A stretch of 64,000 bases of DNA from Candidatus Latescibacterota bacterium (GTDB lineage Bacteria; Latescibacterota; UBA2968; UBA8231). The position numbers and the translations under genes were made by a program. The DNA is taken from contig CBDETK010000013.1 of assembly GCA_965242865.1 (NCBI GenBank), forward strand, positions 2,016,001 through 2,080,000. Reading direction: 5' to 3'. Below are positions 7,960-45,338 of the stretch, piece by piece; positions within the stretch are counted from its first letter, which is position 1; the number at the start of each line of letters is the position of its first letter. The notes beneath the pieces are model-generated. The model was not told the DNA's origin. It saw only the letters and a program-made list of their open reading frames with translations, and searched no databases.

Positions 7960-8310
7960 TTCAAATCCCTTTTTTCTCGTAAGAAATGGAGTAATTCCAG
8001 TCTAGGGCTTGATGGAGAAGGTCTCCAAAGACGTTTTGACCTTACAGACGCCATTATTGATGTAAGTACCCTGATATTGTTTGGCAGTTTGTCAACTAAT
8101 GACTTCTTGCCAGAAGAAGTCGAAGATAAATGTATTATTGGTTCAATGCTCGGCGACAGGCCAAAATTGGAAAAATACATTAAAGAACGATATATTTGGG
8201 TCAGTCGAATTACTGGAGGAGCAACGTCCAATAGGATGGGGTATCTAGCTCAAAATTATGTCAAGGAGCGCTTGATCCAATATCTCCCAAGTTGGAATTT
8301 TTCACAGACT
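7960..8310 (+). pseudogene. Internal fragment of a type II restriction endonuclease (BanI/HgiCI-like), in frame with the downstream MTase
   Basis: FKSL...SNSSLGLDG...ILFGS...KCIIGSMLG...ERYIWVSRITGGATSN, recalled as BanI-family-like; frame opens after TGA 7957-7959 with no proper start. Confidence 0.5.
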
Positions 8311-10071
8311 ATGAAAATGGCCCATAGAAGTGAAAACTGCAAATCTCTAGACATCTCAACAAGGACATTTGCAGATTTGCAAAAATTGTCGTCAAAGTCA
8401 TTGCGTCCAGATGTATGGCTTTTCCATTTGACGACAGAAATTGGTTTCGACGATGAAATTCCTATAGAAACCCTTAATCAGGGATTCGCCGATTTCCTTA
8501 AAAAATTGCCTGAAGAAAGTACAATTTGTTTTTTAGCAAATCCTCGTATAGCTTGCTATGTGGTAGAAGAATTTCAGAACCGCGTCAACTTCAAACTTTG
8601 GATTGCTGTCAAGCGCAAAAAAAATATACTACGATTGAATGCTTTGCCAGATAGCCATATTGCTCTTTTAGTTTTTACCCGTTGCAAAGGTTCTTTAAGA
8701 CACAATAAGACTCAAATAGAATATACGTACTGTCCTGCTTGTAAGAAAACAACAAAGGACTACGGAGGCAAGAAGCATATTTATAGCCCTTATGGGACGC
8801 TTATGTCTGATATTTGGCGAGACATTTCTTATGATAATGACGCAAAACCAAGAGCTATTCTGAACAGACTGAAGGATCTCTTTGGACATGAACCTTATCG
8901 CGAACTGATTTACTGCGATGTTAGGAACTTTCTTACGTGTTCCAACAAGAGAAAATTCCACTCTGCAAACGGAATAATCAATAACCCCGGCGAGAGTCGT
9001 TTACTCAATGGAGATTGTTTAGATGTCCTCAAGAACATTCCTGAAAATTCCGTAGATTTTATTTTTGCTGATCCTCCATATAATATAAAAAAGAAATACG
9101 ATAACTGGAATGATGCCCAAGACATTAGTAATTACTTCTCATGGTGCGACCAATGGATAGCTGAATCAGCTAGAATTTTGAAACCCGGTCGGACTTTTGC
9201 AATTATAAATATTCCTCTCTGGATCGTCAGACACTTTTCGTTCGCACAAAGCATTTTGGATTACCAAGATTGGATAGTTTGGGAGGGCTTGAGCTTGCCC
9301 GTCAGAAAAATTATGCCGGCCCATTACGGAATAATTTGTTTTAGTAAAGGCCATCCAATCGAAATTGCCAATCATCAAAAGAAAGCCCGTAGAGAAACCC
9401 CCCAAGACTTTATGAGCCTCAAACCATGGTATTGTGTTAGGGCTTCTTGTATTAAAAAAAGAAATGCAGCCAAAATTACCGACCGACAGCCGATTGGAAA
9501 TTTATGGTGGGACATTCACAGACTAAAGCACAATTCAAAAAGAGTTGATCATCCATGTCAACTACCCCCATCACTAATGAAGCGACTTATCTACACCTTT
9601 ACCAAAGAAGGAGATCTTGTTTTAGATCCTTTTAACGGCGCGGGTACAACGACCTTAACATCAAAGATGCTTGGCAGAAAATTCATTGGAATTGAATTGT
9701 CGGCTAAATATCATGCAATTGCCGAACAGAGACATTTAGAGCTGCAAAAAGGGAGAGACCCGTTTGCAAAAAATGGCACTACTCCAAAAGCAAAGAATAG
9801 TCGAGTTGCAAGACTACAAAAACAGAAGTATGAAGTGCCAAAAAAAACACTCCAGATCGAAGTCAAGGAGATTGCTATCAAACTGGGACGCCGGCCCGAT
9901 AGAGAAGATATTATTAGACTCAGCAAATACCCAATTCGTTATTTTGACGAATACTTCATCGACTGGGGAGAAGTGTGTAGTGCCGTTGGCGACAAAGGAA
10001 TGACTGAAAATTTCTCTCAATCCATTAGCACTCGACCCGACGATCAACAAATGGAACTCTCTTTTGGATAG
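8311..10071 (+). CDS. Beta-class N4/N6 DNA methyltransferase with extra N- and C-terminal domains
   Basis: GDCL..L, FADPPYN, HPCQLP, LDPFNGAGTT (motif IV before motif I); AT-rich; start uncertain (frame open from 7960). Confidence 0.85.
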   Translation: MKMAHRSENCKSLDISTRTFADLQKLSSKSLRPDVWLFHLTTEIGFDDEIPIETLNQGFADFLKKLPEESTICFLANPRIACYVVEEFQNRVNFKLWIAVKRKKNILRLNALPDSHIALLVFTRCKGSLRHNKTQIEYTYCPACKKTTKDYGGKKHIYSPYGTLMSDIWRDISYDNDAKPRAILNRLKDLFGHEPYRELIYCDVRNFLTCSNKRKFHSANGIINNPGESRLLNGDCLDVLKNIPENSVDFIFADPPYNIKKKYDNWNDAQDISNYFSWCDQWIAESARILKPGRTFAIINIPLWIVRHFSFAQSILDYQDWIVWEGLSLPVRKIMPAHYGIICFSKGHPIEIANHQKKARRETPQDFMSLKPWYCVRASCIKKRNAAKITDRQPIGNLWWDIHRLKHNSKRVDHPCQLPPSLMKRLIYTFTKEGDLVLDPFNGAGTTTLTSKMLGRKFIGIELSAKYHAIAEQRHLELQKGRDPFAKNGTTPKAKNSRVARLQKQKYEVPKKTLQIEVKEIAIKLGRRPDREDIIRLSKYPIRYFDEYFIDWGEVCSAVGDKGMTENFSQSISTRPDDQQMELSFG

Positions 10072-15895: not shown

Positions 15896-16219
15896 GTGGA
15901 TACCCTGTGGAACAATCTCGTCAAAGGGCTACAAGAAGGGGCTGCGGCCGCGGCCGACAAGGCTGGCGACCTGACCCGCCTAGCGCGTGCCCGGCTCGAC
16001 ATCGCCGCTGCGAGGACCCAACTCCACCGCACCCAAGCGGATCTGGGAGCACGGGTCCACCAGCTCCTCGAAGCTGGGGACGATCCCGTAGCCGACGATC
16101 AAGTACAAGCCCTGAACCAACAGCTCAAAGAGCAGAGCACTGCGCTCGCCGATTGCGAGGCGGCCTACGAAGCACTGCAGAGCACAGTGCGCACGGCCGG
16201 CGAGCGCAACGCCGATTAG
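15896..16219 (+). CDS. Hypothetical coiled-coil protein
   Basis: Helical ORF with SD gagg before GTG. Confidence 0.6.
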   Translation: MDTLWNNLVKGLQEGAAAAADKAGDLTRLARARLDIAAARTQLHRTQADLGARVHQLLEAGDDPVADDQVQALNQQLKEQSTALADCEAAYEALQSTVRTAGERNAD

Positions 16220-16295
16220 CAGTACCTCCGCTAGTAACCAATGCGGCTCTATCTTTTGCGACGCCGGCGTAATCAAGGTCGCCCCCCTTACTCCA

Positions 16296-16367
16296 CGACA
16301 CCAGCAACTAGCCTTCCAAGGGTCGAGGGCCTCTTACCCTCGTTGAGGGCGGGACGCCCTCGATCCC
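16296..16367. repeat. REP-like palindrome
   Basis: gggtcgagggc...gccctcgatccc; related copy cgacacca...ttccaaggatcgagggcatcttgccctcg at 42783-42828. Confidence 0.55.
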
Positions 16368-16439
16368 GAACGCAGCAGGAACAGCAGAAAATGCGTACGC
16401 AGTTGGGGCTATCTGAGTATTTGGCGGTTGTTGAGCATC

Positions 16440-16518
16440 TGACAGGACGCCGCGGGCGATGGCGGCGTTTGAAGGTCATAAGGACGTAGCGGCCTATTTG
16501 GCGTCGGTAGGAGGGTAG
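16440..16518 (+). pseudogene. Orphan ankyrin-gene 3' end (AFEGHKDVAAYLASVGG*)
   Basis: Matches the C-termini of the neighbouring ankyrin proteins; duplicated at about 20241-20286. Confidence 0.6.
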
Positions 16519-16522
16519 AGTA

Positions 16523-16632
16523 GCCTGAGTCTGCCCGTGCAAAGGGGGTGGTTAAGGCATTCCATCCTCTTGGAGGCCGGGGCTTAGGCGTTAGGGTGGC
16601 TGTTGGCGCACGGGAACGGCCGCCCTCTTTTT
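16523..16632 (+). ncRNA. Candidate structured cis-regulatory RNA, copy 1
   Basis: P1 gcctgagtc/gggcttaggc, P2 agggggtgg/ccatcctct, terminator agggtggctgtt/aacggccgccct+U tract, loop gcacggg complementary to cccgtgc. Confidence 0.55.
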
Positions 16633-16684
16633 GTGCAAATTGTGCTTTTTGTGGCTCATAACTGATTCACGGAGGAGTTTTGCG

Positions 16685-17134
16685 ATGCGTTGGTTGCTGG
16701 TGGTCTTGGTTGGGTTGGTGTTGGGCTGCGGGGACGATCCGGTGTCGTCGACGGGCAAGAAGCTGTCTGCGGTGGAGGAGCCGGTGTCGCTGTCCGAAGC
16801 GGCTCGTGCAGAGCTGGACCGTCGGGGTATCCCTTATACGGAGGGGGCTTTTCTTAGTGCGGCTTTGGCGGGTGACTTGGCGGTTGTCAAGCTATTCGTA
16901 GAGGCGGGTATGCCGGTTTATATCGCCGACGGCAACGGCTGGACGGTTCTGCACTGGGCGGCGTTTGGAGGTGATTTGGAGGTTGTCAAGTATTTGGTTG
17001 AGCAGGGGGCGGACGTGAACGCTTGGAACTTCTACCAAGATACCCCTATGTGGGCGGCGGGGCGCGGTCATAGTTCCGCCGTGTCGAGGTATTTTCGTTC
17101 GTATTTGGATTCGTTGAGGACCGCGGGCGGGTAG
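16685..17134 (+). CDS. Ankyrin-repeat lipoprotein
   Basis: Lipobox LVLGC; GWTVLHWAAFGGDLEVVKYLVEQGADVN; SD ggagga. Confidence 0.85.
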   Translation: MRWLLVVLVGLVLGCGDDPVSSTGKKLSAVEEPVSLSEAARAELDRRGIPYTEGAFLSAALAGDLAVVKLFVEAGMPVYIADGNGWTVLHWAAFGGDLEVVKYLVEQGADVNAWNFYQDTPMWAAGRGHSSAVSRYFRSYLDSLRTAGG

Positions 17135-17191
17135 GACGGTGACGTGAAGGTTTTGTCTTTTTTTGTGATGCAGGGGGGCTGATGGCGGCTG

Positions 17192-17341
17192 ATGGCGGCT
17201 ACTCAGAGCGGACGAACTCGGATTAGTGCGGAACGGAAGGCGGCGTTGTGTGCGGATATGCGACGGTTGAATGGGCTTGGCTGTACGCAGTCTCAGGTCG
17301 CGGCTGAATTGGGGTTGTCGGCTACGACGGTTCGGCGGTGA
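17192..17341 (+). pseudogene. Small helix-turn-helix protein, probably truncated by a TGG>TGA change
   Basis: MAATQSGRTRISAERKAALCADMRRLNGLGCTQSQVAAELGLSATTVRR*, frame continues LPRLIARHG. Confidence 0.55.
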
Positions 17342-17543
17342 TTGCCGCGGTTGATTGCCCGGCACGGCGTAGGACATGGGTGCGGTATTGTCGTAGGGTG
17401 GCTTTGCGGATGCGGGGTGCGGAGACTGACCGATACTGGGCCGGTCACGGGTTGGACATGGGCCGGCCGATACGCGCTTGACGCACTGGGGTCGCGCCCT
17501 AGTTTGCGGTGTTCACCTTTAACCCTTTCACAAGGAGCAATCA

Positions 17544-18368
17544 GTGAATCTGTACGGAATACTCGCGTGTCTGTCGGCGGCGATCATCATGGTCGGCTGC
17601 GGCGCGGACACGCTCCTCGCGCCGTCGAGCGAACCCGCGGCCCAACCCGCGGCCAAGCAAGCCAGTATGACGCCCGAGCAAGCGCGGGCGGAGCTTGACC
17701 GGCGCGAGATTTCTTATGAGGGCGGGACGTTCCTGTTGTACGCGCAACTGGGCAATGTGGAGGTCGTCACGCTCTTCATCACCGCGGGGATGGACATTGA
17801 AACGAAGAACCCGGCGGATGACTTTACGGCGTTGCACACGGCGGCCACCTATGGGCATTTGTCGGTTGTGCAGTATCTGGTCGGGCAAGGAGCTACACTC
17901 GACGCTACGGGTAAGAATGGCGAAACGCCCCTTATGTGGGCGGCGTTCAATGGGCATTTTGAGGTCGTGCATTATCTGGCTAGGCAGGGGGCCAGCCTGA
18001 TGGCAGAAACGACCCCCGGCGATAGGAGGGCTAAAACCATGGCCGAGGAAGGCGGCCATACGGCGGTAGCGCAGTATCTCCAAGTACGAGAGGAAGGTAG
18101 GCTTAGAAACGCGGCTACTCGTGGCGACCTTGCAGTTGTCAAGGAATGTGTAGCGGCGGGGGTGGCTATCGAATCGAGGGGCAGCAGCAGCGGCACCCCC
18201 CTTCACTGGGCGGCGGTGGGTGGTCATTTGGAGGTGGTGAAGTATCTGGTTGAGCAAGGAGCCAGCGTAACGGCGACCACCGACTATGGCGACAATACGG
18301 CTAAAGACATAGCTCTTTACTACGGCCATACCGCCGTAGTGGAGTATCTCGAGTCTCAAGGTGGGTAG
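17544..18368 (+). CDS. Ankyrin-repeat lipoprotein
   Basis: Lipobox IMVGC; multiple TALH/TPLH ankyrin repeats; SD aaggag before GTG. Confidence 0.9.
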   Translation: MNLYGILACLSAAIIMVGCGADTLLAPSSEPAAQPAAKQASMTPEQARAELDRREISYEGGTFLLYAQLGNVEVVTLFITAGMDIETKNPADDFTALHTAATYGHLSVVQYLVGQGATLDATGKNGETPLMWAAFNGHFEVVHYLARQGASLMAETTPGDRRAKTMAEEGGHTAVAQYLQVREEGRLRNAATRGDLAVVKECVAAGVAIESRGSSSGTPLHWAAVGGHLEVVKYLVEQGASVTATTDYGDNTAKDIALYYGHTAVVEYLESQGG

Positions 18369-18396
18369 CGGGGTCGCTCCCTCTTGAAAAGCAGGC

Positions 18397-18437
18397 AGGT
18401 CGGCACTCGATTGGGTTCGGGTGTCGGCCTTTTTTTT
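18397..18437 (+). terminator. Intrinsic terminator
   Basis: aggtcggcactcga/tcgggtgtcggcct stem plus T run; diverged copy at 21940-21975. Confidence 0.75.
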
Positions 18438-18529
18438 GAGGAACGTCTTGGTCTTGGTCTTGGCGGGTCTGTGGCGGGTGGATGCAGGGGCGCGGCCACT
18501 TTATTATTATCCCCATGGGAGGACGAGCT

Positions 18530-18985
18530 ATGAGCGAGCAACGCACAGAGAGCCAAGACCAAGGCTCCGCTACCTTTAACAAAGAACAAATTGAGTTGAT
18601 AGGCACCGTTTTAGATCTCCGGCTAAAAGCGGTGGTTGCGGAGATGCGCCTCGCAACCAAGGAGGAGGGGGAGAAGGTGCGCGAAGCAATGGATACGGCG
18701 ATTAAGGACACACGCACCGCAATGGATACGGCGATTAAGGATACACGCACCGAGATGAAGGGCGAGGTGCGCGACCAAATTCAAGCCCAATCCAAGCATT
18801 TTTATTGGGTTATAAGTGGTTTGGTCGCTATTTGGCTTGCCGTGGCGACCCTTGCTGTAAATAAGTGGCCGCAAGCCACTCCGGTTGCTGCGGTCGCTCC
18901 GGCAGCACCCGTTGCCCAAGTCGCGCCCGTTACTCCCGCCGAGCCTCCCGAGCTGAACGAGCCTCCCGAGCTGAGTCAGCCCTAA
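18530..18985 (+). CDS. Coiled-coil protein with C-terminal TM helix and Pro/Ala tail (Bdr/DUF1640-like)
   Basis: Tandem AMDTAIKDTRT repeat; FYWVISGLVAIWLAVATLAV; SD ggagga. Confidence 0.7.
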   Translation: MSEQRTESQDQGSATFNKEQIELIGTVLDLRLKAVVAEMRLATKEEGEKVREAMDTAIKDTRTAMDTAIKDTRTEMKGEVRDQIQAQSKHFYWVISGLVAIWLAVATLAVNKWPQATPVAAVAPAAPVAQVAPVTPAEPPELNEPPELSQP

Positions 18986-19135
18986 TACTCTCGCTGTCGT
19001 TGCCTTCTTGGTGGTGGTGCAGTAAAAGCGGCTTTCTCTTTTGGGGCGGGTGCTGGCGCGGACGGGTTGGCCCGTGATTGGTTCAGTTGCTCTTGGACTG
19101 CTTAGGAGGCATTGGGGGCGGTCTGGGGGTGATGC

Positions 19136-19552
19136 TTACGGGGACACTAAGATCGCCAGACGGACATTATCTATTTCAAAATATGATTCCCAACTTTCTG
19201 TAAGAGATTCTGCTGCGAATAGGATGGTCTTATACAGGTCCGCGATCATGATCCCGCTCTCGCCTTCGCCGAGGTAGAGTATCGGGACCGTAGCCGCCTG
19301 CATGACTTCTGAGGGTATATGTGTTGACATAAGCACTAAGAGATATTCTAGCGGTATGTATAAGTTATGGCCGGTGCTGAGGTTGAACTTGAGATATAGG
19401 GCTTGGAAGGTTGTTGGGGTTATCCGGTCATCCTCGATGTCGATGAAGCCGTTCACGTCATAGAGTGAAGGGGACAGTCGCCGCTCGATAATGATTCCTT
19501 GTCGCGGTGGGCCGGTTTTGCCTTGTGGGCCAGCGGGGCCTACGCAGGCCAT
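19136..19552 (-). CDS. Hypothetical protein with short collagen-like G-X-Y start; probably a lipoprotein with decayed signal peptide
   Basis: MACVGPAGPQGKTGPP; upstream hydrophobic stretch is out of frame. Confidence 0.45.
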   Translation of the reverse strand: MACVGPAGPQGKTGPPRQGIIIERRLSPSLYDVNGFIDIEDDRITPTTFQALYLKFNLSTGHNLYIPLEYLLVLMSTHIPSEVMQAATVPILYLGEGESGIMIADLYKTILFAAESLTESWESYFEIDNVRLAILVSP

Positions 19553-19764
19553 TAGTTCGGATTGCAGAAGATAGCAAGCCGAATTGCTTTTTGTCCAATG
19601 ATCGTATTGGCTGAGGCGTGTGGAGAGCGGCGCGGCTGGCGTGGCTGGTGTGATTGGTTCAGTCCGCAGGCATTGACGTGCAGCCCGGCGTGTGAGGGGG
19701 TGCGGCGGTTGTCTGATAGCGGGGCGTGTTCAGATTTATTACTATCTCCATCGGAGGACGAGCT

Positions 19765-20166
19765 ATGAGCGAGCAACGCACAGCGGGTCAAGAGCAAGAG
19801 CGCGGGCAAGGCTCCGCGACTCTTAGCAAGGAGCAAATCGAATTGATAGGCACCATCTTAGAACCCCGGTTTGATAAGGTGATTGCGGAGATGCGCCTTA
19901 TAGCCAAAGAGGAGGGGGAGAAGGTGCGCGCTTCGATGGATACGGCGGTGAAAGATTTGCGCGCCGAGATGAAGGACGATATGCGGCGGCAATCCACACT
20001 TTTTTGTTGGTTTATCGGTATTCTGGTTACTATTGGTCTGGCGGCGGGGGGTCTGGCTGTACACAAGTGGCCGCAAGCCGTTCCGGTTGCTGCGGTCGCT
20101 CCGGCCGCACCCGTTGCCCAAGTCGCGCCCGATCTGAACGAGTCTCCCGGTCTGAACGAGCCCTAA
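19765..20166 (+). CDS. Paralog of the 18530 coiled-coil/TM protein
   Basis: Shared MSEQRT, KEQIELIGT, KWPQA.PVAAVAPAAPVAQVAP and shared flanks. Confidence 0.7.
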   Translation: MSEQRTAGQEQERGQGSATLSKEQIELIGTILEPRFDKVIAEMRLIAKEEGEKVRASMDTAVKDLRAEMKDDMRRQSTLFCWFIGILVTIGLAAGGLAVHKWPQAVPVAAVAPAAPVAQVAPDLNESPGLNEP

Positions 20167-20290
20167 TACTCTCGCTGTCGTTGCATTGTTGTTGTTGGTG
20201 CAGTAAAAGCGGCGTTGCTGTTGTTCCGATGCGCGAGCCAGGGTTATACGGACATAGCGGCCTATTTGGCGTCGGTAGGAGGGTAGAGTA

Positions 20291-20400
20291 GCCTGAGTCT
20301 GCCCGTGCAAAGGGGGTGGTTAAGGCATTCCATCCTCTTGGAGGCCGGGGCTTAGGCGTTAGGGTGGCTGTTGGCGCACGGGAATGGCCGCCCTCTCTTT
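20291..20400 (+). ncRNA. Candidate structured RNA, copy 2 (inside a ~150-bp direct repeat of 16487-16636)
   Basis: Near-identical to copy 1; a C>T change in the terminator stem keeps a G-U pair. Confidence 0.55.
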
Positions 20401-20454
20401 GTGCGTTTTGTGCGTTCCCTATTCGTAAATTTCGGTAAAATTTATCTGGATTAC

Positions 20455-20567
20455 GCCTGAGCCTGCTCGTGAGACGGGGGTGTCCAACAACGCATCCTCA
20501 TTATATGGCCGAGGGCTTAGGTGGTTGGGGGCGGCTGTTGGACACGAGAACGGCCGCCCTCTTATTT
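20455..20567 (+). ncRNA. Candidate structured RNA, copy 3 (diverged, covarying)
   Basis: gcctgagcc/gggcttaggt, gggggtgt/gcatcctc, gggcggctgtt/aacggccgccc, ctcgtg/cacgag pairing; TAAAAT -10-like box at 20436. Confidence 0.55.
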
Positions 20568-20609
20568 GTGCGTTTTTTGGCAATCATTCATTCACGGAGG
20601 AGATTTAGG

Positions 20610-21902
20610 ATGCGTTTGTTTTTTTGGGTTTGGGTTTGGTTAGCGTTGTTTTCTATGCCGGCGGCTTCGTCGGCGAGTACCGCGGAGGCTCGTGCGGAGC
20701 TAGATCGTCGAGGTATTGACTACACTGAATGGGCGTTTGTTGATTCGGCAGCGGCGGGCAACTTAGCGGTCGTCAAGCTATTCGTACAGTCGGGCATGTC
20801 AGTTGAGAGTAAGGGCAGTGGAAGCGCGACGCCTCTGTATGGGGCTGCTGGGTCTGGAAATTTGGATCTGGTCAAGTATTTGGTGGGTCAAGGGGCGGAC
20901 GTGAACGCTAAGGACTTCAATGGCTTTACGGCTTTGCACGCGGCCGCTAGGTCTGGGAAATTGGAAGTAGTGGAGTATCTGGTTGAGGAGCAGGGGTTGG
21001 ACGTCAACGCTACGGACAACTTGGGCGGGACGGTTCTTCACCCGGCGGCCTTGGGCGGCTCAGTGGCGGTAGTGGAGTATTTGGTGGGTCTCGGTTTGGA
21101 CGTCGCTATGACGCGGGACGACTGGACGGCTCTGCACTTTGCGGCGTGGCATGGTCATTTGGAGGTGGTTCGGTACTTGGTTGAGGAGCAGGGGTTGGAC
21201 GTGAACGCTGAGAACAGATACGACAACACGGCTCTGCACAGGGCGGCGCAGGGCGGTTATTTGGAGGTTGTGCGGTATTTGGTGGGTCAGGGAGCAGATG
21301 TCACGGCTAGGGACAACAACGGCCGGACGCCTCGGGGCCGGGCTGCGGGGATGGGTGAAACGGATGTGGCGGCGTATTTGGCGTCGGTGGGTGAGCGCGA
21401 GAAACTTATTTCAATTCCTTCGTCTGGGGTTGGCAAGTGGGAGGTTGATCAAGAGTTAGATCCGGTCAATGACAAGCAGAACGTGTTTGCTGTGCTGCCT
21501 TCAGAGGATTTTGTCCGTGGCCGTTCAGGCGCACTCCTTGGAATAACCTGCGATGGCGGGGAAGTCTTTGAGGTGCAAATTTTGCCTCAAGGGGTGAAGG
21601 TAGCGTATGAGTCTGATGCTTCCAGCGATGTTATTTGGCGGTTTGATAAACTCAAAGCGGTTTCAAAAAAGTGGGTGGTCTCTAAGGATCGAGAGACGCT
21701 TTACCCGATGTCAAAATACTCGCGGAAGCTGGCGGAGGTGCGGGTGCAACAAATCCGATGGGCGCAGAATCTTCTGGTTCGTTCCCAGCTCTTTGTTCGC
21801 ATAAAAGATTCGGAAGGCAAACGGGGCGCGGGCGATTTTGTGTTTGATCTGCGTGGTTCTGCGAAGGCGGTCGATCTGGTGCTAGGTGCTTGCGGTTGGT
21901 AG
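20610..21902 (+). CDS. Secreted ankyrin-repeat protein fused to a C-terminal VasI/TagO-like domain
   Basis: Signal peptide, multiple ankyrin repeats, then W.V...DPVND...ITC...WRFD...W..S.D...FDLRG...ACGW. Confidence 0.8.
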   Translation: MRLFFWVWVWLALFSMPAASSASTAEARAELDRRGIDYTEWAFVDSAAAGNLAVVKLFVQSGMSVESKGSGSATPLYGAAGSGNLDLVKYLVGQGADVNAKDFNGFTALHAAARSGKLEVVEYLVEEQGLDVNATDNLGGTVLHPAALGGSVAVVEYLVGLGLDVAMTRDDWTALHFAAWHGHLEVVRYLVEEQGLDVNAENRYDNTALHRAAQGGYLEVVRYLVGQGADVTARDNNGRTPRGRAAGMGETDVAAYLASVGEREKLISIPSSGVGKWEVDQELDPVNDKQNVFAVLPSEDFVRGRSGALLGITCDGGEVFEVQILPQGVKVAYESDASSDVIWRFDKLKAVSKKWVVSKDRETLYPMSKYSRKLAEVRVQQIRWAQNLLVRSQLFVRIKDSEGKRGAGDFVFDLRGSAKAVDLVLGACGW

Positions 21903-21939
21903 GATCGTGGCGGGTAGGCTTGTTCGCTCAAATCGCAAG

Positions 21940-21975
21940 AAGTCGTCACTCGATTGGATCGGGTGTCGGCTTTTT
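21940..21975 (+). terminator. Intrinsic terminator (paralog of 18397)
   Basis: agtcgtcactcgat/atcgggtgtcggct plus T run. Confidence 0.6.
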
Positions 21976-22118
21976 GTTTTTAGGTGCTGTGAGCGTAAAA
22001 ATCGTTTACTTGGCGCATAGTGGGTTTATCGGGTGCTCGACTAGGCGCATTGTGGTTTTTGTGCGGATTGTGCATTTTTTGGCACTCATTCACTCATTCA
22101 CTCACGTAGGAGGATAGG

Positions 22119-22529
22119 ATGCGCTTATTGGATAGTAACGACGGCTTGACGGCTCTGCACACGGCGGCGTTGTTCGGGCAACTGGGGATGGTCAAGTCTT
22201 TGGTTGAGGAGCAGGGGTTGGACGTGAACGCTAAGAACCACAACGGCCAGACGGCTCTGCACTGGGCGGCGGCGGGCGGTAGTCTGGAGGTGGTGCGGTA
22301 TTTGGTGAGTCAGAGGGCGGACGTGAACGCTATGGCGGCCGTTGTCGCTACGGCTCTGCACGCGGCGGCGATTTTTGGTCATTTGGGGGTCGTCAAGTAT
22401 CTGGTTGAGGAGCAGGGGGCGGACGTAAACGCTAAGAGCATATTATGGGCCTTGACGGCGCGGGACTTGGCGGTGAAGAATGGTCATACGAAGATAGTGG
22501 AGTATTTGGATTCTCATGGCAGAAATTAA
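22119..22529 (+). CDS. Ankyrin-repeat protein without signal peptide
   Basis: GLTALH, GQTALHWAAAGG, TALHAAA repeats; SD ggagga. Confidence 0.85.
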   Translation: MRLLDSNDGLTALHTAALFGQLGMVKSLVEEQGLDVNAKNHNGQTALHWAAAGGSLEVVRYLVSQRADVNAMAAVVATALHAAAIFGHLGVVKYLVEEQGADVNAKSILWALTARDLAVKNGHTKIVEYLDSHGRN

Positions 22530-22839
22530 GCGTTTTGCGGTGTGCATGGTCTGCGGTCGGTCTTGCATCGTCGAGGGGCAGGGCGAGCCTGTCTGCGGCG
22601 AGGAGCATAGGCAGCTATACACGCGAGCGGTTGGAACGCTTGCGAAGTGGCGGTCTCGGCTACGGAAAGCAGAAATGGAGCTGGCGCGGTTGGAGGGGGC
22701 TGGTGACTCGGCGGCGGTGTTGCAAGCGGAGTTCCGGGTTTTGAATCTTCGGCATCGTATCGAGTTGTGGCCGCGGCCGTACTGGCAGCCCCGGGGCAAG
22801 GTTTCGCGGCCGGGGGCGGATGGATGGCAAGCGGCTTAA
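22516..22839 (+). CDS. Hypothetical protein with CxxC...C..EH putative zinc site and coiled coil
   Basis: CMVCGR...VCGEEH; overlaps end of ankyrin gene. Confidence 0.45.
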   Translation: MAEIKRFAVCMVCGRSCIVEGQGEPVCGEEHRQLYTRAVGTLAKWRSRLRKAEMELARLEGAGDSAAVLQAEFRVLNLRHRIELWPRPYWQPRGKVSRPGADGWQAA

Positions 22840-23134
22840 ATGGGCAGTGCTTTCGTCTTTTTTTAGGTCTTATACTACCGATAACCTTGATTATAGGGAC
22901 TACCCCTTGGCGGCACTTTTCGTCATCCTCTCGTCCCGCCCGCCGTAAGCGGCAAACACGGCTTCAAGCAAGAGCACGGCTTGGCCAAAGTAGCGGCCCC
23001 GACGCCACGCCGATTTCGCGCTCAAAGGCCACGCCGCGCACCTCTACGGTCTTGAGCGCACCGCTCGTTAGTATGAGATGTAGGGGTGCTTCCTGAAGAT
23101 GCCTTTTAGACAGGCCCCAGGGCTAGCTGGCATC

Positions 23135-24262
23135 CTAACGGCCTATCGGCAGCATCATTTGCGGGACTTCGCCGACCGTGCAGTCCGCGGATAACAATTC
23201 ATCGACCATGCCGTTTGGTTTCTCGTTGTACTGAGTCACCAGCGTCGTGCCGGCGCCCTCGTCGTCAATTCCCGTAACCTCGTTTAACAACAAGTCCTGT
23301 TCCTGAGCCGTCATTACCGGAAATCCGTAGTGGCGGTTTGCGTATTTTAACGGGCCGCTCTCGGCTGTGCGCGCAGCCGCCCACTCTTCGTGCCGAGCCA
23401 GCCGAGCGCGGTTGTACTTGTTGGCAACCGGAGGCGTGGAGCACAGCAAGTTTTGCGCGACCGTCACCAACGCCTCGTCAATCTCCATGCCGACAGAATT
23501 TCTTCCCGCTGTTAGGGCGGCCGCCAGCGTCGTTCCCGTTCCCGCAAACGGATCGAGCACCACATCTTCCTTGACGGAAAACATACAGATGAGCCGGTAG
23601 GCCAACTCAAAAGGAAAGGCCGCGCTGCGCTCGCGGGTCGGCGCATCCACAAGCCCTTGCGAAGTTCCCTTTACGTCTAACCACACGTCCGAGAACCACA
23701 CGTTGCGCTCCTCCCAGAAGAAGGCACTCTCGCGGCGGTTGGCTTTCTCAGCGGCCGTTGTGAATGTTCGCCGCCGCCCTTTTCTAAGGACGAGAATGTA
23801 CTCGTGCTCGTAGGTTATGTATGCTCCTACGGGCAGCATCCCAGACCCCATGAATTTGTTGGGAGCGTTGGTCTGCTTGCGCCAGAGTATATCGGGCAAA
23901 GCGGCAAAACCTTTGTCGAGAAAATAGCTGAGGATGCGGGAGTGATTGGAATAGAGCTGGAAATCGCCATCTATGGTGCGGGTGGCGTCGCCAATGTTGA
24001 TACAGGCAATGGCCCCCGGCTTCATCACGCGGCTGCACTCCATCCACACTTCATCGAGCAGCTCGTGCATGAGCGCGAAAGCAGCCCGTCCATTGCCGCC
24101 CGCCAGTTGCTCCCCAATGCGACCGTCTTGGAACGCGAAAATCTCGTCCCACATTTCCACCATCGGATAAGGCGGCGAGGTGACGATCAAATCGACCGAC
24201 TCATCTGCGATTCCCGCCATGGACTGGGCCGGGCCGCATATCAACTTAGCGGTGGTCTGCAT
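23135..24262 (-). CDS. Orphan beta-class DNA methyltransferase (probably N4-cytosine)
   Basis: DLIVTSPPY, LDPFAGTGTT; no cognate REase adjacent. Confidence 0.85.
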   Translation of the reverse strand: MQTTAKLICGPAQSMAGIADESVDLIVTSPPYPMVEMWDEIFAFQDGRIGEQLAGGNGRAAFALMHELLDEVWMECSRVMKPGAIACINIGDATRTIDGDFQLYSNHSRILSYFLDKGFAALPDILWRKQTNAPNKFMGSGMLPVGAYITYEHEYILVLRKGRRRTFTTAAEKANRRESAFFWEERNVWFSDVWLDVKGTSQGLVDAPTRERSAAFPFELAYRLICMFSVKEDVVLDPFAGTGTTLAAALTAGRNSVGMEIDEALVTVAQNLLCSTPPVANKYNRARLARHEEWAAARTAESGPLKYANRHYGFPVMTAQEQDLLLNEVTGIDDEGAGTTLVTQYNEKPNGMVDELLSADCTVGEVPQMMLPIGR

Positions 24263-33336: not shown

Positions 33337-34965
33337 TTGACCGCGTCTTTCTCCAACAAGGTGTTCAGCACCCTCTGCGCGACCGTGCTATGGATGTGCG
33401 GCGTTGCAGCCGAGCCGCTTGCGCCCTTCGTCGATGTGGCCGCCGAACTTGGCCTGACCCGCGTCCACGCGAGCGGCAGCTTAGAGAAAGGCTATATCCC
33501 CGAGGCCAAAGGGGGCGGCACGGCCGCGCTCGACTTTGATCGCGATGGAGACCAAGACCTCTATTGGGTCAATGGACAAGGCGGCGGGCACGCACTCTTC
33601 CGCAACGATGGCCCGACCGGCTTTGTCGATGTGGGCGAGGCACTCGGGACCGCCGGCCACGGCTGGGGCATGGGTGCGACGAGCGTGGATTTTGACAACG
33701 ATGGCGACCCAGACCTGTACGCGACCCAACTGCGGGAAAATGTGCTCTTCCGCAACGACGGCGCGGCCTTCGCGGATGTGGGCGCGGCGGTAGGTGTGGC
33801 TACGTCTCATTGGAGCACGGGCGCGGCTTGGGCCGACTACGACCGCGACGGCGACCTCGACCTATACGTGGCGAGCTATGCGATATTCGATTCCGCTGCG
33901 ATTGAACGCTTGGGGGCGCAGTGGAAGGGAGTCGATGTCTTCGTCGGCCCGAGGGGATTGATGGGAGCTGCGGATGTGTTTTATCGCAACGATGGCGGTG
34001 AATTTGCCGACATCACCGCTTGGGCGCGCCTCAATCACCCTTCCCCGGGCTACGGCTTGGGCGTCCTGTTTGCGGACGCGGACGCCGACGGCTGGCCCGA
34101 CCTGTTTGTGGCCAACGACTCTAGCCCGAACTTTTTTTATCGCAACCGCGGCGATGGTCGCTTTACCGACCGCTCCCTCCCGGCTCGTTTGGCTTATGGC
34201 CGCAGCGGGCAAATCCAAGCGAGCATGGGGGTGGCTTGGGGCGACTACGACAACGACGGCCGCCCGGACTTGCTCGCCACGCATTTTGAAGACGAGTACA
34301 ATACCCTCTATCGCAACGAGGGCGACGGCACCTTTGCGGATGTCAGCGCAGAAGCGGCCTTGGCGCGGGCTGGGAGGGCATACGTGAGCTTTGGCGCGGG
34401 GTTTTTTGACTTTGACCACGATGGCGACCTCGATTTGTTGGTAGCCAATGGTCACGTGTATCCGCAGATTGACCGCAGCGGCAGCGGCCGTGCTTATGCC
34501 CAGCCCAATCAGCTTTTTGCCAATGTTGGCGACGGTACGTTTACTCCAGTCGCGCTCGGCCCCCAAGTGCCCCGCGTCAGCCGAGGCACCAACCTGCTCG
34601 ACTTTGACGACGATGGCGACTTGGATGTTTTCGTTGCCAATCTCGACGATCGGCCCTCGTTGTTGCGAAACGATGTGGGCAACCGGCGGAATTGGCTGGG
34701 CCTGCGCTTGGTGGGTACGCGCAGCAACCGCGACGGCATTGGCGCTCGGGTGCGACTCGTCGCTGGCCAGCGGACGCAGATCCGCGACCTCGTCTGCGGC
34801 AGCAGTTTTCTTTCCAGCGAGGACCGCCGCCTTCATTTTGGACTGGGGCGCGTCGAGCAGGTCGATACGCTCGAAGTGCGCTGGCCCGATCAACGCCGCG
34901 AAATTTTTACCGATTTGCCGGTCAATCGGTATTTAATTGTCAAAGAAGGAACATGCGCTTATTAA
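33337..34965 (+). CDS. CRTAC1/ASPIC-UnbV family FG-GAP repeat protein
   Basis: Repeated DFDNDGD.DL, SNRDGIGARV, SFLSS....LHFGLG, V.WP. Confidence 0.9.
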   Translation: MTASFSNKVFSTLCATVLWMCGVAAEPLAPFVDVAAELGLTRVHASGSLEKGYIPEAKGGGTAALDFDRDGDQDLYWVNGQGGGHALFRNDGPTGFVDVGEALGTAGHGWGMGATSVDFDNDGDPDLYATQLRENVLFRNDGAAFADVGAAVGVATSHWSTGAAWADYDRDGDLDLYVASYAIFDSAAIERLGAQWKGVDVFVGPRGLMGAADVFYRNDGGEFADITAWARLNHPSPGYGLGVLFADADADGWPDLFVANDSSPNFFYRNRGDGRFTDRSLPARLAYGRSGQIQASMGVAWGDYDNDGRPDLLATHFEDEYNTLYRNEGDGTFADVSAEAALARAGRAYVSFGAGFFDFDHDGDLDLLVANGHVYPQIDRSGSGRAYAQPNQLFANVGDGTFTPVALGPQVPRVSRGTNLLDFDDDGDLDVFVANLDDRPSLLRNDVGNRRNWLGLRLVGTRSNRDGIGARVRLVAGQRTQIRDLVCGSSFLSSEDRRLHFGLGRVEQVDTLEVRWPDQRREIFTDLPVNRYLIVKEGTCAY

Positions 34966-42914: not shown

Positions 42915-43700
42915 CTATTCGCCCGCTCCGGTCAGGGTGCGAATGCGGTCGATGATGGCGTACACGGTCTCGGTGACGCCATTGAGCAGCGCGAAGCGGT
43001 CGTCCATCTCCACCCGCGCCCCCTCGTAGCGGTATTCTACCGCATAGCTGGTCAGCCACGTCAATTGTTCGCTGGCGGACGTGTCCTCCTCTTGGGGATG
43101 CTGGCGGATGATGGCGATCAACTTGCCCAAGTGGTGGATGTTCTGGTAGTCGGCGTCGAGCGCGGAAATCCAGCCCTTGAGCGCGTTCTCAATCGCCTGC
43201 TGCGCGTGGAAGCCGATGGCTTCTTGATCGGCGCTTCCTTCAATTAGGATGTTCAGGACGCGCAGCTCGCGCTCGGCGTTGGCAATGCGCTGTCGTATGT
43301 CGGGCCAATTCGTCGGCTGTGGGTTGTCGTAGCTCACTTTGTCTCCATTCGCGTCAAAGCCGTCGCGCACGGCTTGCCCGGCCACGTGATTGCGCGCCCG
43401 GCGGCCATCGTGAAAAGCATCCTCGCTCAGGTGAACCAAATCAACGCCCATCGGCTCGCCGTACACTTCCTCGACCGTGCGGTGGGCAGCCGCGCTGGTG
43501 CGCTGATAAGTCTGCCGGTCTAACGGACCGGGGCCGGTGACGATCAGCAGGTCGATGTCCGAGTCCGGGCGAAAGTCGCCCCGGGCGCGGGAACCGAACA
43601 GGATCACTCGATCGGGATGAACCGTCGCCTCAACGGCGCGGGCGACCGCGCAGGCGCGCGGATCGGGAGGCTGATAAAGTTGGGAAACTGCCATGGTCAA
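42915..43700 (-). CDS. MNT nucleotidyltransferase-HEPN fusion, copy C
   Basis: ILFGSRARGD...DSDIDL; FHAQQAIENALKG, NIHHL, YRY. Confidence 0.85.
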   Translation of the reverse strand: MTMAVSQLYQPPDPRACAVARAVEATVHPDRVILFGSRARGDFRPDSDIDLLIVTGPGPLDRQTYQRTSAAAHRTVEEVYGEPMGVDLVHLSEDAFHDGRRARNHVAGQAVRDGFDANGDKVSYDNPQPTNWPDIRQRIANAERELRVLNILIEGSADQEAIGFHAQQAIENALKGWISALDADYQNIHHLGKLIAIIRQHPQEEDTSASEQLTWLTSYAVEYRYEGARVEMDDRFALLNGVTETVYAIIDRIRTLTGAGE

Positions 43701-43742
43701 CCGTCCTTGCGGTGCGGAATCACTCGTCGCTGACGACACCTG

Positions 43743-44531
43743 CTATTCACTCGTTCCGGTCAGCGTCTGAATACGGGCGATGATAGCCTGCACGGTCTCG
43801 GTGACGCCGGCGAGCAGGGCGAAGCGGTCGTCCATCTGCACCTGTACCCCTTCGTAGCGGTATTCTACCGCATAGCTCGTCAGCCACGTCAGTTGTTCGC
43901 TGGCGGACGTGTCCTCCTCTTGGGGATGCCGGCGGATGATGGCGATCAACTTGCCCAAGTCGTGGATGTTCTGGTAGTCGGCGTCGAGCGCGGAAATCCA
44001 GCCCTTGAGCGCGTTCTCTATCGCCTGCTGCGCGGTAAATCCGATAATTTCTTGAGAAGAACGGGGATTCTCAACGAGAACCTCCATGTCGGCGAGGTTG
44101 CGCTCGGCGTTGGCAATGCGCTGTCGTATGTCGGGCCAATTCGTCGGCTGTGGGTTGTCGTAGCTCACTTTGTCTCCATTGGCGTCAAAGCCGTCGCGCA
44201 CGGCTTGCCCGGCCACGTGATTGCGCGCCCGGCGACCATCGTGAAAGGCGTCCTCGCTCAGGTGAACCAAATCGACGCCCATCGGCTGGCCGTACACTTC
44301 CTCGACCGTGCGGTGGGCAGCCGCGCTGGTGCGCTGGTACGCTCGCCGATCGACCGGACCGGGGCCGGTGACGATCAGCAGGTCGATGTCCGAGTCCGGG
44401 CGAAAGTCGCCTCGGGCTCGGGAGCCGAACAGGATGACCCGATTGGGATGAACCGTCGCCTCAACGGCGCGGGCGACCATGCAAGCGCGCGGGTCGGGAG
44501 GCTGATAAAGTCGGGGGACTGCCATGGTCAA
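43743..44531 (-). CDS. MNT-HEPN fusion, copy B
   Basis: Same motifs; tandem unit of about 830 bp. Confidence 0.85.
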   Translation of the reverse strand: MTMAVPRLYQPPDPRACMVARAVEATVHPNRVILFGSRARGDFRPDSDIDLLIVTGPGPVDRRAYQRTSAAAHRTVEEVYGQPMGVDLVHLSEDAFHDGRRARNHVAGQAVRDGFDANGDKVSYDNPQPTNWPDIRQRIANAERNLADMEVLVENPRSSQEIIGFTAQQAIENALKGWISALDADYQNIHDLGKLIAIIRRHPQEEDTSASEQLTWLTSYAVEYRYEGVQVQMDDRFALLAGVTETVQAIIARIQTLTGTSE

Positions 44532-44573
44532 CCGTCCTTGCGGTGCGGAATCGCTCGTCGCTGACGACGCCTG

Positions 44574-45338
44574 CTATGCACCCGTTCCGGTCAGCGTCTG
44601 AATGCGGGCGATGATAGCCTGCACGGTCTTGGTGACGCCGGCGAGCAGCGCGAAGCGGTCGTCCATCTCCACCCGCGCCCCTTCATAGCGGTATCTTACC
44701 GCATAGCTGGTCAGCCACGTCAGTTGTTCGCCGGCGGACGTGTCGTTCTCTTGGGGATGCCGGCGGACGATGGCGATTAAATCGGCCAAGTCGTGGGTGT
44801 TCCGATAGTCGGCGTCGAGGGCGGAAATCCACCCCTTGAGCGCGTTCTCAATCGCCTGCTGCGCGTGGAAGCCGATGGCTTCTTGGGAGCCATTTATTTC
44901 GATCAGCTTTTCCAAATCAGAGAGTTCGCGCTCGGCGTTGGCAATGCGCTGTCGTATGTCGGGCCAATTGGTCGGCGTTGGGTTGTCGTAGCTCACTTTG
45001 TCTCCATTGGCGTCAAAGCCATCGCGCACCGCTTGCCCGGCCACGTGATTGCGCGCTCGGCGGCCATCGTGAAAGGCATCCTCGCTCAGGTGAACCAAAT
45101 CGACGCCCATCGGCTGGCCGTACACTTCCTCGACCGTGCGGTGGGCCGCCGCGCTGGTGCGCTGATAAGCCTGCCGGTCTAACGGACCGGGGCCGGTGAC
45201 GATCAGCAGGTCGATGTCCGAGTCCGGGCGAAAGTCGCCTCGGGCGCGCGAGCCGAACAGGATCACCCGATCGGGGTGAACCGTCGCCTCAACGGCGCGG
45301 GCGACCACGCAGGCGCGCGGATCGGCTGCCATGGTCAT
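44574..45338 (-). CDS. MNT-HEPN fusion, copy A
   Basis: Same motifs, NTHDL. Confidence 0.85.
   Translation of the reverse strand: MTMAADPRACVVARAVEATVHPDRVILFGSRARGDFRPDSDIDLLIVTGPGPLDRQAYQRTSAAAHRTVEEVYGQPMGVDLVHLSEDAFHDGRRARNHVAGQAVRDGFDANGDKVSYDNPTPTNWPDIRQRIANAERELSDLEKLIEINGSQEAIGFHAQQAIENALKGWISALDADYRNTHDLADLIAIVRRHPQENDTSAGEQLTWLTSYAVRYRYEGARVEMDDRFALLAGVTKTVQAIIARIQTLTGTGA

Follow-up and report, generated by a model that had tools for sequence, protein, structure and literature searches.

The ZTP riboswitch (pfl motif, RF01750) is usually found with genes of purine or folate metabolism. The small RNAs (sRNAs) derived from 3′ untranslated regions (UTRs) of enterobacteria, such as CpxQ and SroC, start after a stop codon and contain a 5′ hairpin domain followed by a Rho-independent terminator, while the processive antitermination RNAs include put of phage HK022 and the Bacillus EAR element, which is intercistronic and contains a pseudoknot. 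Here we analyze an element that resembles each of these in part and that shares its basic layout with intrinsic intercistronic terminators. It is present in three copies in a 64,000-nt stretch of DNA (the window) from a Candidatus Latescibacterota bacterium (assembly GCA_965242865.1, contig CBDETK010000013.1, positions 2,016,001 to 2,080,000); all positions below are in window numbering. A preliminary description, made from the sequence alone, had presented the element as an unrecognized structured RNA upstream of ankyrin-repeat genes and had proposed that it is a new riboswitch, attenuator or antisense switch. The observation is real, whereas the strong interpretation, that of a switch, is unsupported by the present data. 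The reading that we favor, tentatively and with somewhat less than an even chance of being correct, is that the element is an intercistronic 3′-end hairpin plus a leaky intrinsic terminator that was spread by segmental duplication.

All three copies lie on the + strand at the places first reported, and their ends could be extended to 16636, 20404 and 20571. The element is ~115 bases long and, as had been described, each copy is predicted to contain a hairpin, P1, that encloses a second, P2, followed by a terminator-like stem, P3, with a U tract. Copy 1 spans 16523–16636 and scores 137.8 bits against R1, a covariance model built from the copies at this locus and thus from two lineages. In its predicted fold, P1 (16523–16532/16580–16589) is followed by the J1/2 strand of a predicted pseudoknot (16534–16540) and by P2 (16542–16551/16562–16571, with its loop at 16552–16561), while P3 (16593–16604/16615–16626) presents a loop (16605–16614) of which 16608–16614 pairs with J1/2, and precedes a U-rich tail (16627–16636). 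Copy 2 (20291–20404, 134.7 bits) has the same register and is 98% identical to copy 1, from which it differs at 2 of 114 positions; one of these substitutions changes a G-C pair of P3 to G-U. No gene lies behind copy 2, and copy 3 (20455–20571, 102.2 bits, 77% identical to copy 1) begins 50 nt further on. Copy 3 is predicted to form P1 (20455–20464/20513–20522), the J1/2 pseudoknot strand (20466–20471), P2 (20476–20483/20492–20499) and P3 (20527–20539/20549–20561), with 20543–20548 of the P3 loop (20540–20548) pairing with J1/2 and a tail at 20562–20571. In the three-way alignment, 80 of the 114 copy-1 positions are invariant. Copy 2 is contained within a 175-nt duplication (16474–16648 versus 20242–20416, 95% identity; family D5) that comprises 49 nt of an ankyrin gene tail, the element, and only 12 nt 3′ of it. 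Because copy 2 is a 95 to 98% duplicate of copy 1, the locus provides two independent lineages and not three, and the tandem arrangement mentioned in the preliminary description derives from this segmental duplication, which also carried the gene tail.

In minimum free energy folds of the + strand (ViennaRNA), a P1 of 10 bp encloses a P2 of 8–10 bp and is followed by the GC-rich P3 hairpin of 12–13 bp; the U-rich tails after P3 in these predictions are CUUUUUGUGC, CUCUUUGUGC and UUAUUUGUGC for copies 1, 2 and 3, respectively. These folds have −55.3, −53.4 and −57.1 kcal/mol, respectively. Against dinucleotide shuffles the z scores are −2.80, −1.57 and −3.69, and 2, 13 and 0 of 200 shuffles folded as well; copies 1 and 3 thus fold better than shuffled sequence. 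The minus strand folds no better than its shuffles (z of +0.77, +0.91 and −1.08), in agreement with the earlier view of a structured element, here specific to the + strand, and this asymmetry together with the G-U pairs points to RNA rather than duplex DNA. With the register set for each copy separately, P1, P2, P3 and the pseudoknot consist of standard pairs throughout. The stems of copies 1 and 3 are identical at 54 of 60 nt (90%), compared with 39 of 60 (65%) in the remaining segments under a generous gapped alignment (Fisher p 0.0018). All four one-sided stem changes between the lineages keep pairing, as does a fifth, in copy 2, and the P2 loop is replaced, just as had been stated from the sequence. 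When any base is allowed, the null probability of such pair-keeping changes is 0.0017 for four and 0.00036 for five. These comparisons suggest, at moderate strength, that the fold exceeds chance.

The J1/2 strand and the P3 loop are complementary over 7 bp in copies 1 and 2 (CCCGUGC/GCACGGG) and over 6 bp in copy 3 (CUCGUG/CACGAG), where the seventh pair is lost. Between the lineages the complement is kept by a double change, C to U and G to A, that replaces a C-G with a U-A pair; thus the loop complementarity and its compensatory change, both of which had been noticed before, are confirmed in the sequence with every pair standard. Pseudoknots of these lengths were reached by 324 of 20000 shuffled loops for copy 1 and by 403 of 20000 for copy 3. 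In both lineages the predicted helix occupies the 3′ part of the loop up to the stem, with three nucleotides of the loop left over on the 5′ side, a geometry that, by inference, would be typical of H-type pseudoknots, and the pairing could tie P1/P2 to the terminator hairpin. The claim that the element covaries stands for this one C-G to U-A exchange but not as a formal result: the covariation test on the three-row alignment gave no significance, as only a single pair differs on both sides and 159 of 500 shuffles do the same. The nested helices are without a double change (RNAalifold on the MAFFT alignment). In the three-row alignment 95.7% of the cells pair, compared with 42–51% when partners are slid, and the P2 cells that appear broken in the alignment-based tests do so because P2 of copy 3 is misaligned in the MAFFT alignment.

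The surroundings of the copies suggest what such a fold may be doing there. Copy 1 is preceded by an ankyrin 3′ remnant on the + strand (16438–16518) that translates as SDRTPRAMAAFEGHKDVAAYLASVGG and has its stop codon 4 nt before the element; its DNA and the last part of the ankyrin domain of the gene at 20610 share 72% identity (family D7), and no long open reading frame (ORF) reads into it. A second + strand remnant, which belongs to the D5 duplication (20230–20286, translation CASQGYTDIAAYLASVGG), has its stop codon 4 nt before copy 2. Downstream, the element tails lie 48 nt before the start codon of ank1 and 38 nt before that of ank3. The body of ank3 (20700–21975) is ~100% identical to a paralogue at 5.10 Mb of the same genome; the homology declines through the signal peptide and leader (81–93%) and ends at 20581, 10 nt after the element. 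At the paralogue, an ankyrin stop codon is followed by 19 nt and then by the same kind of leader, without the element.

P3 resembles an intrinsic intercistronic terminator in having a GC-rich hairpin of 12–13 bp (7–9 G-C pairs) and a U-rich tract (CUUUUUGU, CUCUUUGU and UUAUUUGU), located after a stop codon and before the next Shine-Dalgarno sequence. Canonical examples occur at other ankyrin junctions of the genome, including those after ank2 (18397–18430 plus T8) and ank3 (21947–21965). Among the eight other ankyrin junctions printed, a hairpin with a T run is clear in three, weak in one and missing in four, and where present it follows the stop codon and precedes the Shine-Dalgarno sequence by 28–60 nt. 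In contrast to these terminators, the element has loops of 9–10 nt, which are longer than usual and are complementary to a strand in the preceding P1/P2 hairpin; the possibility that the loop docks there is the only trait of the element that is out of the ordinary. The leaders behind the element are of a common kind. That of ank1 (16637–16684, +) contains a UUGUGC box, a CA/U-rich stretch and the Shine-Dalgarno sequence GGAGGAG (16671–16677), and that of ank3 (20572–20609, +) contains the same Shine-Dalgarno sequence at 20596–20602. The underlying pattern, a U-rich UUGUGC box, CAUUCAUUCAC, GGAGGAG, 7 nt and AUG, is shared with at least eight other junctions of the genome. The spacer between copies 2 and 3 (20405–20454, +) likewise contains a UUGUGC box, followed by 38 A+T-rich nucleotides with TAAAAT at 20436–20441. 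A scan that covers only sigma-70-like promoters listed no site on the + strand between 15800 and 22451, and inspection by eye between the terminator and the Shine-Dalgarno sequence, or before P1, revealed nothing convincing.

Because the element starts after a stop codon, was copied along with the tail of a gene, is not needed by the closest paralogue of ank3 and resembles in its position the canonical terminators behind other ankyrin genes, we favor a lineage-specific 3′-end module of an ankyrin gene in a tandem array. From its sequence, predicted folds, distribution and genomic history, we infer that it would be transcribed with the upstream gene and would act as follows. The compound hairpin of P1 and P2, directly after the ankyrin stop codon, would be followed by an intrinsic and probably leaky terminator, formed by P3 and its tail, and together they would end or attenuate transcripts of the upstream gene and provide them with a stable 3′ end. 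The loop of P3 may dock onto J1/2 and thereby stabilize this end or tune termination. Since the 38–48 nt between the element's tail and the start codon leave too little space for a promoter, and none is recognizable there, the downstream ankyrin gene would depend on read-through for its expression and the terminator should be partial; the earlier portrayal of the last hairpin as terminator-like agrees with this placement. The copies would have arisen by segmental duplication or gene conversion in a fast-changing ankyrin array and not by mobility of the element or as a designed tandem sensor. The locus would then mainly illustrate how gene tail, hairpin, terminator and leader are shuffled with paralogous ankyrin genes in a variation hot spot, and with two sequence lineages the element cannot carry a stronger claim.

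Several observations weigh against this reading. None of the three P3 hairpins was listed by a terminator scan, because their loops exceed the 3–8 nt that the scan allows, and termination at P3 is therefore a prediction from the fold. A plain terminator would have no need of the loop–J1/2 complement, which is kept by a double change. The units of copies 1 and 3 are similar beyond the element as well, across the leader and on into the genes (65.5% over 522 nt), so an old joint duplication of the element with the downstream gene is also possible. In copy 3, GUGUCCAACA (20480–20489, +) is a perfect 10-nt complement of UGUUGGACAC (20536–20545), and this alternative pairing is predicted to be the preferred fold (−38.5 kcal/mol) of the nascent copy-3 RNA as long as P3 lacks its 3′ strand; as complements of 10 nt were reached by only 16 of 5000 shuffles, a pairing so rare by chance that is also the nascent fold fits a switch better. 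Finally, when only transitions are allowed, the null probability of the pair-keeping changes rises to 0.14 for four and 0.086 for five.

These last values, together with the nonsignificant covariation test, are consistent with an explanation in which the element is functionless. It would be intergenic DNA of a decayed ankyrin array copied by recent rearrangements, in which GC-rich inverted repeats fold anyway and pairing was kept by chance. Indeed, the only place where the element occurs is an accessory island that is a mosaic of duplications, copies 1 and 2 are located behind pseudogene fragments, copy 2 has no gene behind it, and the fold of copy 2 stands out least from its shuffles. However, the stems are far better conserved than the rest of the element and than the neighboring third codon positions, only 39 of 67 of which (58%) are identical between ank1 and ank3 at identical residues, all stem changes keep pairing, and the G-U pairs make the fold strand specific. 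In addition, DNA contigs of strain X4 carry, in the copy-1 context, a C-to-U change at 16617 that is the same pair-keeping change as in copy 2; a C-to-U at 16668 is also among the differences listed for this strain. The change at 16617 may reflect gene conversion. On balance, we consider a functionless element unlikely, though by no means negligible.

The pseudoknot and the alternative fold of copy 3 are the main reasons for which a switch keeps any weight. In this explanation, the element would be a conditional cis-regulator of the downstream secreted ankyrin genes, either riboswitch-like or an attenuator dependent on a protein, a tRNA or temperature: the folded P1/P2/pseudoknot would let the terminator form, while without such stabilization the antiterminator would form and polymerase would read into the gene. 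The presence of the pseudoknot complement in both lineages, at lengths reached by 1.6% and 2.0% of shuffles, fits this proposal, as do the antiterminator-like pairing of copy 3, the location of the terminator, which lies 38–48 nt upstream of the start codons and is not separated from them by any promoter-like site, and the lack of a match to any known family. In copies 1 and 2, however, the antiterminator is missing: P1/P2 persists in the predicted fold of the nascent RNA, in which no stretch complementary to P3 is longer than the 7-nt pseudoknot. The antiterminator-like pairing that had been pointed out for copy 3 is therefore real in that copy but is not a conserved feature of the element. 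Nor does the element behave as part of the gene that it would regulate, as it is linked to an upstream gene tail and moves together with the ankyrin remnant's 3′ end, whereas the nearly identical paralogue of ank3 and most other members of the family have a leader without it. No conserved promoter is found upstream of P1, the covariation between the only two lineages is not significant, homologues were sought without success in 30 congeners, in ~150 genomes of the phylum and in 66 ankyrin loci of other genomes, and exact-pattern scans of three collections gave no real match. The proposal of a new riboswitch, attenuator or antisense switch thus lacks a comparative basis, and we regard a conditional regulator of any of these kinds as quite unlikely. 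Still less likely is its most specific form, a young, species-specific attenuation switch in which P1/P2 would be locked by the pseudoknot to the loop of its own terminator and would compete with an antiterminator that is fully developed in copy 3. If it were true, the switch would gate read-through into the symbiont's secreted, eukaryote-like ankyrin proteins in response to a ligand, a protein or temperature; it would be a regulatory RNA caught at birth in a fast-evolving effector array and a first handle on how a symbiont controls its eukaryote-like effectors.

The searches behind these statements began with Rfam 15, which gave no match at the gathering score in the 64-kb window, in keeping with the preliminary impression of an unrecognized RNA. 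At E ≤ 10 nothing overlapped the element in 16400–20700 and there were no matches in 20270–20610; six matches in 16500–16690, at 10–13.4 bits against gathering scores of 45–106, are noise. In the genome of 5,997,474 bases, R1 recovered the three copies at 102–138 bits, with the next match at 20.4 bits, and nhmmer with all filters off returned the same three copies only, on the + strand and within 4.1 kb. Within the genus, R1 found the element in none of 30 genomes (best score 22.9 bits), and BLAST gave only fragments of 16–43 nt (E 0.004–0.94) in 22 of the 30 congeners. Among 100 relatives, five had matches to R1 at E ≤ 1 (best 30.4 bits), and their alignments of 20–30 bits cover the terminator hairpin only, while 150 sampled genomes of the phylum, searched with stricter filters, gave no match at E ≤ 0.01. 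A search that used as its query the N-terminal module conserved in the three ankyrin proteins also brought together 66 ankyrin loci of other genomes, the best being from an uncultured Latescibacteria metagenome-assembled genome (MAG) at 60% identity; R1 finds nothing in them at E ≤ 1. A scan for the pattern GCCTRAGYCTGCYCGTG, a gap of 25–55 and GGRCTYAGG, which requires exact matches and would miss diverged relatives, gave no match in genome contigs or viral contigs. One match in a metagenome contig (L053:770–849) scores 18.3 bits with R1, is without the terminator part and lies antisense inside a 323-aa transposase ORF with HTH_38 and rve domains; we consider it a chance match. BLAST against plasmids and phages gave no match to the element, and the full-text literature searches, in the portions of papers that they return, yielded none linking structured RNAs to ankyrin genes of symbionts. 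As the covariance model finds no homologue in anything else searched, significant covariation among further homologues cannot be obtained.

Comparison with the described RNA classes is in line with these searches. The topology was said to resemble that of the ZTP riboswitch and the consensus not to, and this is borne out for the rough topology only: in both, an internal strand of the 5′ helical domain pairs with a 3′ hairpin near a terminator. In contrast to the ZTP riboswitch, however, the element does not match RF01750 even at E ≤ 10, has no phylogenetic spread, uses the loop of the terminator hairpin itself for its pseudoknot and is located beside ankyrin-repeat genes. Similar to put and EAR, it is a structured RNA, predicted to act in cis, inside a multigene array, but it shows no similarity to them in sequence or Rfam model and itself carries a terminator-like hairpin. 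With repetitive extragenic palindromic (REP) sequences, bacterial interspersed mosaic elements (BIMEs) and miniature inverted-repeat transposable elements (MITEs) it shares being short, foldable, intergenic and repeated; unlike them, it has three copies at one locus in one orientation and is without terminal inverted repeats or target duplications.

The 3′ UTR-derived sRNAs are the class closest to the remaining explanation, that the element is an sRNA that acts in trans, ends at P3 and is produced either from the 3′ UTR of an ankyrin mRNA or by its own transcription, in the case of copy 3 from the A+T-rich spacer. Like them, the element begins directly behind a stop codon, is structured in its 5′ part and would have the terminator of the mRNA as its 3′ end, and its fold and strand specificity, together with the 38-nt A+T-rich spacer and its TAAAAT 14 nt before copy 3, agree with this architecture. 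In contrast to what is seen in them, no more than remnants are left of the genes behind which copies 1 and 2 lie, and the element is restricted to a single locus, without homologues in the genome, genus or phylum searches. The promoter scan lists no site before any copy, and the TAAAAT has no −35 hexamer beside it. Beyond the pseudoknot segment no conserved single-stranded seed was identified, and no target was identified. Of the explanations weighed here, we consider an sRNA the least likely.

Other candidates were rejected on separate grounds. A MITE or transposon end, which had been named as a reason to abandon the proposal, is ruled out: with only three copies in 6.0 Mb, all on the + strand within 4.1 kb, and none in plasmids or phages, the element is not a dispersed transposon end. 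Integron attC sites carry R′′/R′ core sites (GTTRRRY); although GTTAGGG was seen by eye after P1, there is no inverse core before P1, and the three tyrosine recombinase genes of the genome are at 0.93, 1.46 and 4.99 Mb, compared with 2.03 Mb for the element. For an RNA of a retron, a diversity-generating retroelement or a group II intron, the only RVT_1 match is at 5.49 Mb. ARAGORN predicts no tRNA or tmRNA gene in the window. A GUG-started frame runs through copy 3 into ank3 (20469–21902), but as a small ORF or leader peptide it is not conserved; in the corresponding frame of copy 1 the first start after a stop is at 16631, behind the element. Folding of the element together with the leader gave unstable long-range pairings that differ between copies, and sequestration of the Shine-Dalgarno sequence was therefore dismissed.

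The three copies lie within an accessory island of ~6.8 kb (16230–23065) that also contains four ankyrin-repeat genes, two paralogous genes for small membrane proteins and an interspersed repeat. The ankyrin genes were confirmed by Pfam Ank families (E 6.5e-17 to 3.1e-56): ank1 (16685–17134, +; 149 aa, Ank_4, E 6.5e-17), a gene at 17544–18368, ank3 (20610–21902, +; 430 aa) and a gene at 22119–22529. Three of the four encode N-termini that by eye are signal- or lipoprotein-like; that of ank1 appears lipoprotein-like and that of ank3 signal-like, and ank3 has a non-ankyrin C-terminal part. The island site was compared in 8 of the 30 congeners; the island, an insertion over its whole length, is missing at the same site in all eight. 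In seven, the conserved gene at 15896–16219 and the DNA methyltransferase gene at 23135–24262 are only 3–78 nt apart, and in the eighth (G030, L133:491–3033) a different insert of 2.5 kb occupies the site. The genes of this insert encode a 275-aa leucine-rich-repeat-like lipoprotein and a secreted repeat protein. In these comparisons, the site is a hot spot for variable genes of eukaryote-like proteins. The island exists in other samples as well: short contigs from four DNA runs contain it, and the stretch is present in five DNA runs from two studies.

The near-identical stretch shared by ank3 and its paralogue amounts to ~1.27 kb (ank3 body plus terminator) and has its counterpart at G000:C13:5099665–5100940, in an ankyrin cluster 3 Mb away; it points to a very recent duplication or gene conversion, or could reflect an assembly issue of the MAG. 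Canonical intrinsic terminators of one family (GGCACTCGATTGG.TCGGGTGTC and a T run) are found at 18397–18438 and 21947–21975 and at 4.706 and 4.709 Mb of C13; they are conserved behind several ankyrin genes and move with the 3′ ends of these genes. The interspersed repeat (16284–16401), located between the conserved gene at 15896–16219 and the remnant before copy 1 and 120 nt upstream of the element, with which it has no similarity, is ~110–120 nt long and palindromic at its center (GATCGAGGGC...GCCCTCGATCC). In the genome, BLAST gave 66 matches to it at E ≤ 1e-6 (36 on the + and 30 on the − strand), 20 of them of at least 90 nt, and its depth in metagenome contigs is 15–20 times that of its flanks. 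It has no Rfam match and looks REP- or MITE-like. The two paralogous small proteins (18530–18985, 151 aa, and 19765–20166, 133 aa; families D8, D9 and D16) each start with a coiled-coil-like part, contain a single hydrophobic segment and end in a tail rich in Pro and Ala, with no Pfam match, and their relatives at 3.23 and 3.50 Mb of C13 stand beside other ankyrin clusters. Between the two genes, 19136–19552 (− strand) is a stretch of low G+C content with a 138-aa ORF of no Pfam family, and strain X4 has replaced segments in this region (joints 19178/19306 and 19501/19556). N6/N4 DNA methyltransferase genes flank the region at 8077–10071 and 23135–24262, the former fused to a BanI-like restriction-enzyme fragment and an HNH-repeat.

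The window contains further repeats outside the island. Three tandem units of 828–831 nt with 89–91% identity occupy 42915–45198 (families D2 and D3). At 33517–34634, DxDxDGD-type motifs (GA(C/T)TTTGA...GATGGCGAC) recur every ~150–400 nt (families D10 and D13) and probably derive from a calcium-binding or FG-GAP-like repeat protein. Direct repeats are found at 59437–59597 (68 nt, 87%, 93 nt apart) and 61768–62072 (52 nt, 96%, 253 nt apart), which form families D15 and D18.

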